Source: an uncultured Bacillota bacterium | GTDB taxonomy: Bacteria > Bacillota > DTU025 > MWDF01 | Direction: 5' to 3' | Assembly: GCA_963823655.1 (NCBI GenBank) | Contig: CAWGMK010000010.1 | Coordinates: 128,001-192,000 of the forward strand | DNA length: 64,000 nucleotides | Part shown: one piece after another, positions 18,514-56,793 of the stretch | How the letters are laid out: each line of letters begins with the position of its first letter | Numbering within the stretch: the stretch's first letter is position 1 | The notes under the pieces: generated by a model | What the model was told of the DNA's origin: nothing | What the model saw: the letters and a program-made list of their open reading frames with translations, nothing else | Database searches by the model: none | Program-made: the position numbers and the translations under genes

Positions 18514-19245
18514 CTATCTACCAGAAAGCTTTAATATCGCCTCTTCCATTTTCAAAGCATCATACCACGACTGCCTCAAGATTACCGTACCGTCCTTGCC
18601 TATTAGATAGGCGATGTTCGGCGCGGGCCCGTAAGTGAACCAGACGGGGTTGTCGAACTCATCTACAAGAACCGGTATGCGGATATGGGACTCCTCGATG
18701 GTCTTTTTGGCAAGTGAGACCCTTTGATCGTAACTTTGCGGCTGAAGAACCGGGGCGCCATTCTCGTCCTTGCTGAAAGCAGCCGGCCACTCCTTGGTCG
18801 AATATGGGCTTACAGAGCCTACAGGATGGGCCTCTATTGTGTAGATGATCAGGAAGTGTGCAATGTCCTTGAACTTCCCGTGAAGCTTGTCTGTGGCAGC
18901 CAACCGCTGCCTGAAGGGCGGTCAGGTGAAAGAGCCTATGATCAGGACGACAGGCTTTTCGGAAAGCAGGTCCGATAATGTGTGGCTTACACCCTCAGTG
19001 TCCTTCAAAGTGAAATCGACCGCCATTTGAGCCTGTGCGATGCCGACCCTGGAAAATGACGCCTGCCCCGGAAGCGGCAAGCCCCTTAGGAGCACCCCGG
19101 GCAATGAAGGCGAAATGCCTGCTTCTTTGCCAATCAAAAGGCCGGCAAAAGCGGGACCTGGCAGAAGAAGGCATACGGCAGAGGCCAGCGCCGCTACAAG
19201 CAGCAATCGGAATATCCACATTGAAGAAACCCTTCGCGCTTTCAT
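18514..19245 (-). CDS. iodothyronine-deiodinase-like thioredoxin-fold selenoprotein (Sec at UGA 18922-18924)
   Basis: Two ORFs join in frame: DFTLKD...KPVVLIIGSFT-UGA-PPFRQR...FLIIYTIEAHP...LVDEFDN...YGPAPN. Hydrophobic N-terminus; GGAGG RBS before ATG at 19245. Confidence 0.88.
18895..18911 (-). promoter_or_regulatory. bacterial SECIS-like hairpin
   Basis: mRNA GGCAGC-GGUUG-GCUGCC, a perfect 6-bp stem beginning 10 nt 3' of the in-frame UGA. Confidence 0.7.
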
Positions 19246-52746: not shown

Positions 52747-53394
52747 TTGAAAGCTCTTAGAATAGCGATAATCGCAGCAGTGATCATATTTGCGGTATTC
52801 CAGTCAGGTTGCCGGACGACATGGTCTTTGGATTTTACAGAGGCTATTGAGGAGGACCTTGCCGATTGGGGCGGGTATTCCAGCTGGGCACTTGACGACC
52901 CTCCCGGATCGGGCCTACAGGTCGAAGAGTATTACGTGCTGAGCCCGATAGGGTTCTCTGCCGATTTCACGCTGACTCTGGATATGTGGATGGATATTGA
53001 CGATTCCAACAGCGCAGATTTTAGGATTTGGATCGGCGATGATGAGAGCGACTATCCGGAGCATTACATTACCTGCGAGTTCGAGCAGGCAGGAGATGAG
53101 ATTAACGAGGAAGTCCTGATCCATGAGGACGGTGTGGGATTGGATTTTCGCGACATCGATACTTTGGAGCCCATACCGGGCATTAAGAATGGCACCAATA
53201 CATTCAAGCTGATAAGAAGAGGGGACCATATCAGGATAACCATGAACGGCGCTGAACTTGCGGACTTTGATGCCATCTACTTTAATCCTCCGGCATGTTT
53301 TGTCGGCTTTGTAACCGATGATACATCTAGCCAGGATGTCTATTACAGGAAGATCAGCGTCAGCTATGCGGGGGATCCGGTCCCGCTTCCTTAA
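52747..53394 (+). CDS. acidic hypothetical lipoprotein (beta-sandwich-like)
   Basis: Lipobox QSGC; beta-rich, acidic sequence. Confidence 0.7.
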   Translation: MKALRIAIIAAVIIFAVFQSGCRTTWSLDFTEAIEEDLADWGGYSSWALDDPPGSGLQVEEYYVLSPIGFSADFTLTLDMWMDIDDSNSADFRIWIGDDESDYPEHYITCEFEQAGDEINEEVLIHEDGVGLDFRDIDTLEPIPGIKNGTNTFKLIRRGDHIRITMNGAELADFDAIYFNPPACFVGFVTDDTSSQDVYYRKISVSYAGDPVPLP

Positions 53395-53499
53395 TCGGCG
53401 CGGCTGACTGCGAAGAAGTCACCGGCGGTATATAATAGCCCAAAGGCTCCATTAGTGCAGAGCCCGTTGATACTTGAGATTCTCGACAGTTATGGGGTG

Positions 53500-54624
53500 A
53501 TGCATCATTCGTCTAAGGAAGTAAGATATTCTTTCTGCTCAGTCTAATATTAGCCGTATTCCTGGCCAGTGCGACCACCTCGGCAGGCGCAATGACGCTG
53601 TCTCCGGCATGGGTTAAGGACGGCTTCGATGGTGCGTCCATGGCAACTTCGGGCGAGGGTGTCATCATTGTGGCTGTCGGAGATAGGGTCTATAAGATAG
53701 GCAAGGACGGCTCGACTGTCTGGGAGAGGAAATCCCCAGGGCCGGTGGCGGTTGTTGAAGGGGACGGATACGGGGGCGCATGGGCGGCGACGGGGAAGAC
53801 TCTGATACGAATCTCAACAGACGGCGCAATTAAGTGGACGTTCACCTATGACGATGTGATTTTAAACCTTGAAGCTTTGCCGGATGGCAGGATGCTTGCT
53901 GGCACCGAGCGGGGCGTGATCCTCGTGGATAGTGCAGGAAAGCTGGTATGGCTGTACGACCCTGCGACCGGGTGCGACACTTGAATACCTATCATTCTTG
54001 GGCCGGTTCGGTCCATTGAATACTTAGGCGGCGACGACATTCTTGTGCTCGGGCAGGTGTATCGGGATATTCAGCGACATGGAAGCGCTCGATTACCTGA
54101 CTGTCGTCAGCCTTGAATATGGCGACACATCCAACGACTGCAACTATATATGGCCATTCAACATTACTGCTGTGGCAATTGAGCACCGCAATTCGATCAT
54201 AGTCTCGGCTTACTATAGAAGGGTAGTCAAGTGGAACGGAATTAGCGAATTTGAAGTTGAATGGTCCAAGACGATGGATCTGCCGAAGTACTTAGCATAT
54301 GACAAGCTGACCGGCATAGTAATCATCGGGCAGGAGGGGAAGAGCATAACGGCAATAGCCACAAGGAATGGCGAAAGCGCGAGTTCTGCAGTGCTTCCTT
54401 TTGAGGTGCTTACAGAGCCTCTCAGCCTGGAAGGAAACGGGTTGCTGATAATTGGGGACGGAATTGCAGCGGTGCTTGACGGGAAGCTGGTCATTTCGGG
54501 CGAATACCGGGCTTCATGGATAGTGGACGGCGCAATTGCGTCATTTGACGGTAGCTCAATATTCGTGCTTTCTTCCGGCAAATTGGCTAGGTTCGGTGTT
54601 GTTGCGGTCCTGGGGCTGCCGTAG
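53500..54624 (+). CDS. secreted PQQ-like beta-propeller protein; candidate selenoprotein (CDT-UGA at 53982-53984)
   Basis: Signal peptide KIFFLLSLILAVFLASATTSAGA; xDG..xW propeller repeats; frame continues past UGA as IPIILGPVRSIEYLGGDDILVLG; apparent frameshifts near 53515 and 54055. Confidence 0.6.
53994..54021 (+). promoter_or_regulatory. SECIS-like hairpin
   Basis: AUUC-U-UGGGCC-GGUUC-GGUCCA-UU-GAAU; loop 20 nt after the UGA; same GGUU loop as at 18895-18911. Confidence 0.55.
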
Positions 54625-54771: not shown

Positions 54772-56264
54772 TCAAACCTTGTCTTCATTGAAGGCATCAT
54801 CGGGCGTCACCTGATCCCTGACCCAGACAGAAACCTGGCCTCCGTTGCAGGGAAAGATGCCATTGCCATCTTTATCGATGGTGACTTTGTCGGTCCGGTT
54901 GCCCGTATAATCGGCATAAACAGCGCCTTGATTGATAGAGCCTACATTCATCTGTTTTTCGCCGCCGGCGCCGTTGCTCATGACAACAGCACAGCCATAG
55001 GGATGCACTCTCATCACCCATCCGGACCCAGCCGACGGAATTGTTGTGGTCGAAGTAGTCCACCTGTTTGCCATAGGCATGTAGATTCCGCAGATACAAC
55101 AGCTTATCAATCATCGCCTGCTGCCCGTCAAAGGGCTGTGGCGCCTTAATGCCATAATAGTCCCCGTAGAAGATCTTCGGATATCCGTCCTGGCGAAGCA
55201 GGATCAGCGCATAGGCCAGTGGTTTGAACCAGGCTTCAACCCAGGACTGGAGGGGCTGGTCAGGCTGGGAGTCATGGTTGTCGACAAAAGTCACGGCATA
55301 TTCCGGATGTTCCTTGACCAGAGATCCTTCAAAGATCTTGCTCATATCATAACGGTCGCCGGATTTGCTGGCCGTATGCATGTTGAAATGGAGTTTCACG
55401 TCGAAAAGGTCCATCTCGAAGTCGGTATTGTCAAGATAGTCATTGATCGCTTCTTTATCCTGATTCCAGTATTCACCTACGGCATAAAAGTCTGTCCGGT
55501 ATTCACCCCTGATCTTCCGAATTAGATCGCGTAAGAAGAAATCGTTGATATGCTTGACTGCATCAAAGCGGAAACCATCCACACCTGTCTCATTAACGAA
55601 CCAAAGCGCCCAATTGCGGACCTCTTTGACCACATCAGGATGTTTGTAGTCAATATCATTGAACATGAGATAGTCAAAATTGCCGTTTTCGTAGGTGACG
55701 CCACTTGACCAGCCCTTGTTGATGCCATCGATCATGTAGATAGCATCTTTGATTGTCTCTCGCATTGAAGTCGAGACCGGAGAAATGGATCCAGCTCCAT
55801 TTGAATGCGGAATACTGGTCGCCACGCCCGGGGAAAGTGAATTTTGTGTAAGCCTCGATCTCATAAGATTCGGAAATAGCCCGGGTTCGGTTTGAAGGGT
55901 CCATTTTCCTGGCCATGAAAGTTTCTTTTTCATCGCCATTGGCTTTATGGTTCAGGACGACATCGACATAGACATTGATCCCATGATCGTGAAGCACGCG
56001 GATGGCTTCCTGAAGCTCTTCCTTGGAGCCGTACTTGGTCCTGACCGATCCTTTCTGGTCGAACTCGCCTAGATCATAAAGATCATAAGTGCCATAGCCT
56101 GAATCAAAGGGAGAAGTAGCCTTAAAAACTGGCGGGATCCATACACTGGTGATGCCTAGCTCCTTCAGATGACCGGCATCATCTTTCAGCCGAATCCAGA
56201 GGTTATTCTGAAGATCCCCCATATACCATTCAAAATATTGAAACATGATTCCTTTTCGAGCCAT
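54772..56264 (-). CDS. alpha-amylase (GH13, AmyS/AmyA type; frameshifts near 55745 and 55010-54970)
   Basis: MFQYFEW, GYGTYDLYDLGEFDQKG, DVVLNHK, DGFRFDAVKH, GEYW and FVDNHD motifs. Confidence 0.93.
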
Positions 56265-56793
56265 AAAGCTTTCCTGCCTTTCAGTAATCACACCCATCAC
56301 CCAAAGTTGTTACACTTGCCATTCGAATAAGAATGCACTATGCGAATATTTCTTCGGCTTGGTCTGGGAGGTTTAACAGAATTTGCAGCCATGCCGAAGT
56401 TCAAAGGTGCTTTCTCTGTCACAAGGGCAGGTTCTACCTCAGAAAAGAGGCGCCTTTTTGGCGTCCACAAAGCCCGAACCCTTTCTAATGTTCGCTTCAA
56501 AGAGCGTTTCCCCATTGTTGAATTTAGTCCTCATAAACGACTGAAAATGCAGTGAATAAAATCGATTCCGGAGCTTTACACCGATATTGCTTTTGCGCCT
56601 ACTTAAGGCGCGATAATCTTTATGGTAGCGCCCGAAACAATCGCAGTTTTCGATCCTCTTGATGACAACGCCGCCTGCGACATCCGCAATCAGGATGCCT
56701 TCGAGACGGCAATTGGCGTGACCAGTTTTCGGACACCAAGTTGGCACACGCGGACAAACCCTACGTAATTCATCTTAGAGTCAACTGATATTC

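Follow-up and report, generated by a model that had tools for sequence, protein, structure and literature searches.

Prokaryotic selenoproteins in which selenocysteine (Sec, U) stands directly behind a cysteine (CU) or three residues behind it (CxxU) are well-known cases of UGA recoding. Table 1 of a 2026 review (PMC13188914), which covers 119 prokaryotic selenoprotein families and subfamilies, has SaoC, SaoL and HgcA in the CU form and SelW-like proteins, AhpD-like proteins and GrdA in the CxxU form. Their folds are thioredoxin-like or small metal-binding ones, their genes carry an in-frame UGA followed by a stem-loop within the coding region and, according to the abstract of a preprint by Haft on eight families, such proteins appear in databases as entries ending at the UGA. 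Here we describe a locus of an uncultured Bacillota bacterium, located in a window of 64,000 nucleotides (G000:C10:128001-192000; the 2.3-Mb host genome is labelled G000, and positions given without a contig are those of the window), that has the same in-frame UGA and coding-region stem-loop, a cysteine adjacent to the predicted Sec or three residues before it, and database entries broken off at the UGA. It differs from the known CU and CxxU proteins in having no sequence relationship to them (0 NCBIfam families of release 20.0 at E<=1 for the intact orthologue) and in being, by all appearances, an exported propeller. As judged from sequence, the locus very probably encodes one exported beta-propeller with a predicted Sec beside a Cys and belongs to a new selenoprotein family.

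By fold, the closest described proteins are the pyrroloquinoline quinone (PQQ)-like or BamB-like propellers (PF13360, 3HXJ, the designed 'Cake' and 'Bagel' proteins, BamB), with which the family shares the blade repeat and its D-G...W motif. Sec, in contrast, occurs only in the new family, whose C-terminal 200 residues are divergent, and the likeness would imply neither PQQ binding nor BamB function. By decoding, the closest described element is the bacterial Sec insertion sequence (bSECIS) of the E. coli fdhF type. In both cases a stem-loop lies directly 3' of the UGA inside the coding region and has a small apical loop with G and then U, whereas the hairpin of the family is very short (6–7 bp) and has no conserved lower stem or bulged U. 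The decoding route is the standard one; the fold is new for Sec.

The literature holds no precedent that our searches for a propeller selenoprotein could retrieve. Table 1 of the review has no propeller, PQQ or BamB entry, these words are absent from the review text apart from an author name, and the accessible parts of the BSepDB paper (its supplementary family list aside), of the deep-Sep paper and of the Haft preprint do not mention them. A preliminary description of the locus had failed to recognise the fold among described bacterial selenoprotein families, and this still holds after comparison with the 119 families of Table 1 and with NCBIfam. According to the accessible part of the deep-Sep paper, Cys homologues exist for almost all selenoproteins; with no Cys form found in our searches, this family appears to be an exception to the rule, and that would account for its having been overlooked. 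We consider it likely that the family is undescribed, depends obligately on Sec and is the first beta-propeller selenoprotein family, with exported members in 2–7 paralogues per genome, CU and CxxU forms, and a range of one Bacillota genus.

A conserved TGA beside an invariant cysteine

The frame of open reading frame (ORF) 53592..53984 reads ...KLVWLYDPATGCDT and then meets a TGA at 53982-53984; this N-terminal stretch comprises ~130 residues of propeller blades and ends with ...KLVWLYDPATG-C-D-T. Past the TGA the same frame gives IPIILGPVRSIEYLGGDDILVLGQVY, with IPIILGPVRS as its opening residues, and thereafter drifts, while the next frame, that of ORF 54043..54624, carries GIFSDMEALDYL... 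to a TAG. The preliminary description had presented the locus as a propeller ORF that ends with ...DPATG-C-D-T-TGA, runs on in frame and then shifts into ORF 54043..54624, and all of these elements are present.

When 41 related genomes were searched with the C-terminal half, matches appeared in seven, namely this genome and all six other species of its genus, and in none of the 34 genomes outside it. E values in the six genus genomes range from 1e-40 to 4.5e-62. All seven orthologues have WLYDPATGCDT-TGA-IPI(I/A)LGPV in a single frame. This genome itself holds seven family loci, six of which carry the TGA at the same aligned column; in its five other paralogues the TGA is preceded by C, CST or CDF, and the seventh locus, a fragmented copy on contig C6, also has a TGA, after CDT. 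One of the paralogues, on contig C4 (G000:C4:90486-91388, minus strand), contains a second in-frame TGA (KLGVDG-u-LECAF). A second Sec was considered there and rejected, as relatives have K or R at this position, and the codon is probably noise or decay.

Across the family the TGA is found in 26 of 26 distinct DNA sequences, 20 of them retrieved with a pattern that also permitted Cys, Trp, Gly or another stop at that column and six with a looser one; TAA or TAG occurs in none of the 26. A six-frame profile search of the whole class gave 28 match rows, 25 with exactly one TGA and three that begin at model position 29 or later and stop short of the Sec column. Cys precedes the TGA in all 26 sequences, either adjacent to it (CU: EDC-U, PNC-U) or three residues before it (CxxU: CDT-U, CST-U, CDF-U, CAT-U), and alignment A1, of 14 sequences, has C160, U163 and GPV169-171 as invariant columns. 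A tree of 23 members, from which the window copy was left out owing to its frameshift, explains the CU label by one change (support 74/72); its clades of paralogues number at least five, and the branches between them reach ~1.7 changes per site.

The identities of the N-terminal and C-terminal halves to the reference are 56.0/57.8, 58.4/58.3, 41.9/43.9, 44.4/42.4 and 41.1/43.4% in five orthologues. The halves diverge equally and therefore evolve as one protein. Homologues with a sense codon other than Cys at this column, or with the halves as separate genes, would have spoken against the preliminary description; in all relatives we found the TGA throughout and the halves in frame.

Hairpin, selenocysteine machinery and genetic code

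A hairpin with a GGUU loop had been proposed 20 nt 3' of the UGA. It is found as UGGGCCG-GUU-CGGUCCA with 6–7 bp, or with the alternative loop GGUUC at 54005-54009 if the closing G-C pair is open. The segment 53982-54030 folds with a minimum free energy (MFE) of -16 kcal/mol (z = -2.92; 2 of 200 shuffles equal it), the window hairpin by itself with -9.2 kcal/mol, and the hairpin alone in 20 of 20 family sequences with -7.9 to -10.6 kcal/mol. According to the legend of Fig. 2 in PMC13188914, the bSECIS model has a loop of 3–9 nt with G in its first two positions, an upper stem of 4–16 bp, a distance of 16–37 nt from the UGA to the loop and an MFE <= -7.5 kcal/mol. The family falls within these bounds with a loop of 3 or 5 nt that reads (N)G-U-N(N) in 19 of 20 sequences and GGCCU in one, a stem of 6–7 bp and a spacing of 20–21 nt.

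The helix covaries. In a gapless DNA alignment of the 20 sequences, 94.3% of the cells in columns 18-24/28-34 are paired. The corresponding values are 85.3 +/- 2.0 for shuffles, with 0 of 500 as high as the alignment itself, and 65–71% when the partner strand is slid by one column. The outermost pair, 18-34, is GC in 11 sequences, AU in 5, UA in 4 and unpaired in none, and RNAalifold returns the same helix as 6 bp with a 5-nt loop. Synonymous choices in the hairpin are those that pair: its Gly codons are GGG (16) and GGA (4 of 20), while the long ORFs of the genome use GGC at 54%; its Ser codons are TCC in 17 of 17 against 24.5% genome usage; and its 14 Arg codons are divided between CGG (7) and AGG (7). 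Leu (CUC) or Phe (UUC) in place of Ser leaves the pairing intact. The element takes its sequence from codons of the invariant GPV(R/W)S, so that RNA and protein would constrain each other.

Other scans added little. Rfam gave nothing at E<=10 for 53800-54200 and is uninformative here because it returned no bacterial SECIS match, and promoter and terminator scans gave nothing beyond shuffled expectation. A custom bSECIS-like scan of the genome, tried as a way of defining the selenoproteome, was discarded as too unspecific (624 candidates).

The Sec machinery presupposed by the preliminary description is present in this genome. A cluster at G000:C6:98054-104116 contains tRNA-Sec (76.3 bits), which has the sole UCA anticodon among the 54 tRNAs found, followed by selD, selA and selB; selD itself has an in-frame TGA (KAG-U-AAK). 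Both selA and selB occur in 7 of 7 genomes of the genus. At the level of the class, 18 of 21 genomes have selA, among them 11 of the 14 without the propeller family. TGA terminates 461 of 1272 long ORFs and is thus an ordinary stop, which argues against general recoding; global recoding of TGA was considered and is ruled out by this stop usage together with the tRNA set.

The window contains another Sec user, a deiodinase-like gene (18517-19245, minus strand) with a TGA at 18922-18924 (GSFT-U-PPF), which matches PF00837 with 52.5 bits (cut-off 27) and also AhpC-TSA. The hairpin GGCAGC-GGUUG-GCUGCC begins 13 nt after its UGA, and the GGUUG loop bears out the earlier remark that the same type of loop follows the UGA at 18.9 kb. 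The deiodinase-like protein and the propeller share a genome, an N-terminal hydrophobic signal-like segment and a 6-bp hairpin at a similar distance. They differ in that the former belongs to a known thioredoxin-fold family (PF00837), has the motif U-P-P-F and is unrelated in sequence. The family hairpin resembles those after the UGAs of both selD and the deiodinase-like gene.

A partial survey of the selenoproteome has so far revealed SelD, the deiodinase-like protein and the seven propeller paralogues as users of Sec. FdhA had no match at the family cut-off in the genome, and GrdA and GrdB were not detected there, both being weak negatives whose controls matched nowhere. Because these three were not found, the propeller family, with SelD and the deiodinase-like protein, may be the main reason why the lineage keeps its Sec machinery.

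Fold, frame and alternative readings

The intact orthologue P0002 (369 aa) has PF13360 (PQQ_2/BamB) as its sole Pfam match, at 29.1 bits (E 9.8e-7; cut-off 27.6), a threshold that the fragments from the window itself do not reach; the C-terminal half alone matched no Pfam family. Searched against PDB sequences, the family profile matches the designed Cake10 (6TJI, 5.7e-46), 3HXJ (4.7e-22) and BamB chains (~2e-5), and the matches to PQQ-type propellers span profile positions 26–146. The Pfam and PDB sequence matches thus support the PQQ-like propeller proposed at the outset. For a database C half, the ESM Atlas gave weak propeller-like leads to DUF5711, DUF5050 and PQQ_2 at 0.91–0.94. Comparison of the profile with itself shows repeat offsets of 76 aa and ~180 aa; read together with the ~38 aa spacing of W in the alignment, they suggest a propeller of 7–8 blades. 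Hydrophobic, signal-like segments are present at the N terminus in 14 of 14 intact members. In a Cake blade the W strand is followed by a turn of six residues; in the family this place is taken by a loop of 13–15 residues that carries Cys and Sec and leads to GPV(R/W)S, which is predicted to be the first strand of the next blade. In the usual propeller topology, loops that connect strand D with strand A are located on the face with the channel entrance.

The product is accordingly best pictured as a single exported protein of ~365 residues, with a signal peptide and a PQQ/BamB-like propeller of ~7–8 blades, which would leave the cell via the Sec translocon. An extended loop after the third blade would bear the invariant Cys and the Sec encoded by the UGA, so that the pair would be placed on the propeller's entrance face, in the link from strand D (blade 3) to strand A (blade 4). 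The 6–7 bp hairpin, with its loop N-G-U-N-N 21 nt past the UGA, would recruit SelB with Sec-tRNA(Sec), and the UGA would be decoded as Sec. Outside the cell the Cys/Sec pair may act as a selenenylsulfide/selenol-thiol redox centre or as a soft-metal-binding centre.

Several observations weigh against this picture. In the assembly, the window copy has a frameshift at 54061 and no canonical start before the signal segment; selB is also split in this genome, and the contig without base 54061 has a depth of only 2.7. The hairpin overlaps the invariant peptide GPV(R/W)S, so its conservation is partly at the level of protein. No Cys-containing form was found in database profile, word-indexed and six-frame searches, and the pair of Sec and Cys homologues by which selenoproteins are customarily, if not strictly, defined is lacking; support for Sec therefore rests on the conservation of the TGA and on the hairpin. 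At the Sec column, W appears in two JGI protein calls, P0004 and P0171, which belong to one cluster. Every member comes from a metagenome-assembled genome or a metagenome contig, and no Trx, CcdA or other redox partner stands beside the family copies in six neighbourhoods.

The damage to the window copy invites the reading that the selenoprotein family is genuine while this copy is a pseudogene, with the base at 54061 and the missing start as real mutations. The frame does break at 54061, there is no ATG, GTG or TTG in frame ahead of the signal segment (the only possible initiator is ATA 53526), and 5 of 7 family copies in this genome look damaged, which makes decay of paralogues conceivable. 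The sole contig that lacks the base, a 169-nt contig from another public run (X2) that spans 54008-54177 and has 0 other differences, is shallow like its companion (depth 2.7; X2 contigs 2.5–2.7), and at a depth below 5 a difference that rests on one contig may be erroneous. Yet unrelated housekeeping genes are split in the same assembly. This is the case for selB (two ORFs, G000:C6:102231-104116; a single frame of 639–670 aa in 6 of 6 relatives), for the alpha-amylase next door (54772-56300, minus strand, three frames) and for aroA (two pieces, G000:C10:283601-284782, that is L092:3602-4782). Deletion of base 54061 gives ...LGQVFGIFSDMEALDYL and restores the orthologue consensus VFGIFSD exactly, and 6 of 6 orthologues have no shift at this position. 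Because selB, the amylase and aroA are split, five of the seven family copies are damaged and the deletion restores the consensus, we read the extra base with high confidence as an assembly indel. As to the 5' end, the start is possibly ATA 53526, which has a Shine-Dalgarno-like sequence in front of it, or is possibly obscured by an assembly indel relative to ATG 53500 in another frame; a CU-type paralogue of a relative (L028 of G002) has ATA where the paralogue L030 (G004) has its ATG start, and initiation at ATA may occur in this genus. A pseudogene is thus an unlikely explanation, and the window copy is probably intact in nature.

The selenoprotein reading must also be set against three others that touch the TGA itself. 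An error of sequencing or assembly in an ordinary gene, a concern of the preliminary description, is conceivable in an assembly that clearly has indel errors, but the TGA is kept in six other species and in all paralogues, and a second, independent X2 contig that covers 53854-54004, TGA included, is identical to the window. The conserved TGA and this contig already refute such an error, the probability of which we take as negligible. A true stop, with two polypeptides, the second made by re-initiation, and a split propeller, would agree with public gene callers, which annotate two 'hypothetical proteins', and with the lack of a Cys-form fusion in our searches. It sits badly with halves that are always in frame, with exactly one TGA and no spacer between them, with a conserved IPI/FPT...GPV that starts at the very next codon, and with an invariant Cys 1 or 3 residues ahead of the TGA. 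A signal peptide is present on the N half but would be missing from the C half, a hairpin of SECIS type that covaries lies at SECIS distance, and the codon is TGA in 26 of 26 sequences, never TAA or TAG, over branches of up to ~1.7 changes per site. We hold this alternative to be highly improbable. Little credence can be given, finally, to read-through of the UGA as Trp, Cys or Gly by near-cognate decoding or by recoding independent of SelB. It could account for the W in P0004 and P0171; these calls, however, come from short contigs (1839 and 1176 nt) and, as protein calls alone, are compatible with a table 4 caller that reads TGA as W or with a real TGG. Moreover, no tRNA other than tRNA-Sec has a UCA anticodon, this genome uses TGA as a normal stop, and the hairpin conforms to the bSECIS model and resembles those of selD and the deiodinase-like gene. 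The Cys stands at the CU or CxxU spacing typical of selenoproteins; the preliminary description had called CxxU such a motif, and Table 1 of PMC13188914 has both forms.

Distribution, public records and feature coordinates

The family appears, as found so far, to be limited to one genus of uncultured Bacillota. In a survey of 21 genomes of the class, all 7 from the genus have the family and none of the 14 others, which are 72–97% complete, does. An even sample of 401 genomes of the phylum gave matches only in genus members and one weak match (G334, E 1.9e-8), an ordinary 498-aa PQQ-like protein in which the Sec site is uncovered; apart from this match, the class and phylum searches found no homologue of the C-terminal half outside the genus. 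Named records are labelled Bacillota, Firmicutes or uncultured Clostridia and are metagenome-assembled genomes.

A profile search of 1.84 billion representatives returned 20,025 matches, of which the best 150 were considered. Of these, 128 are long multi-repeat proteins that match the N-terminal blades, and the best matches are giant surface proteins of 674–7935 aa with 4–21 copies of the same blades. The remaining ones among the best 150 are 7 N halves (149–162 aa), 14 C halves (177–207 aa) and one full-length call, P0004. The three N halves inspected end with ...EDC or ...GCDT, and the C halves start just past the TGA (8 sequences read). Word-indexed searches gave 7 matches, 5 C halves and 2 distant PQQ proteins, and further 20 C halves of 177–210 aa; a search of longer proteins found no longer or fused form of the C-terminal region, which is weak evidence. 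Where public source names are given, all are 'hypothetical protein', with the two halves recorded separately.

Selenoprotein catalogues lean on Sec/Cys homologue pairs and on known families, and a family that shows no Cys form and is cut in two by every gene caller slips through. Should our reading be true, selenium biochemistry would gain a new fold, the beta-propeller, and an extracellular location, and seven copies in a 2.3-Mb genome would represent a lineage-specific selenoprotein expansion. It would also gain a compact natural SECIS of 17 nt inside a conserved peptide motif, useful for recoding studies. Annotation errors would be flagged in several public metagenome-assembled genomes.

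Features of the propeller locus and its upstream neighbour (window positions)
Feature	Position	Strand	Basis
Upstream lipoprotein-like gene, 215 aa	52747..53394	+	ORF; weak match to 3-keto-disaccharide hydrolase/DUF1080-like
Putative Shine-Dalgarno-like AAGGAAG, 4 nt 5' of ATA 53526	53515..53521	+	Inferred from sequence reading
Signal-peptide-like segment (M/I)FFLLSLILAVFLASATTSAGA, start uncertain	53526..53591	+	In-frame translation
N-terminal propeller blades, about three PQQ-like, ending ...WLYDPATGCDT	53592..53981	+	Frame of ORF 53592..53984, alignment, PDB sequence matches
Invariant Cys codon TGC of the C-x-x-U motif	53973..53975	+	Column C160 in alignment A1 (14 sequences)
In-frame TGA, predicted Sec codon	53982..53984	+	Conservation; identical independent contig
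Continuation of the frame 3' of the TGA, IPIILGPVRSIEYLGGDDILVLGQV	53985..54060	+	Aligns with orthologues
bSECIS-like hairpin from the codons of L-G-P-V-R-S-I	53999..54015	+	Folding, covariation, RNAalifold
Extra A causing the frameshift as assembled	54061..54061	+	Base absent from X2 contig
C-terminal propeller blades, stop TAG 54622-54624	54062..54624	+	Frame of ORF 54043..54624

Around six family members the gene neighbourhoods differ from one another, and other paralogues are surrounded by unrelated genes. The only conserved neighbour is the upstream lipoprotein, and this for the orthologue group of the window copy only. All run holders share few words with the query (<=0.16), too few for an interpretation of habitats. 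In a metatranscriptome run (X9), a 681-nt contig that is ~91% identical covers 52936-53619, from the lipoprotein gene across the spacer into the first bases of the propeller gene, with indels relative to the window at 53418, 53492, 53518, 53558 and 53561; it hints at most at transcription of the region in a related strain and is no evidence for transcription or read-through of this gene.

By tblastn, each of the 7 genus genomes has the lipoprotein gene directly 5' of the propeller gene. Its match to PF06439 is below the Pfam cut-off (E 0.029). Paralogues of the lipoprotein are numerous in this genome, where tblastn gives 26 further high-scoring segment pairs on 8 contigs.

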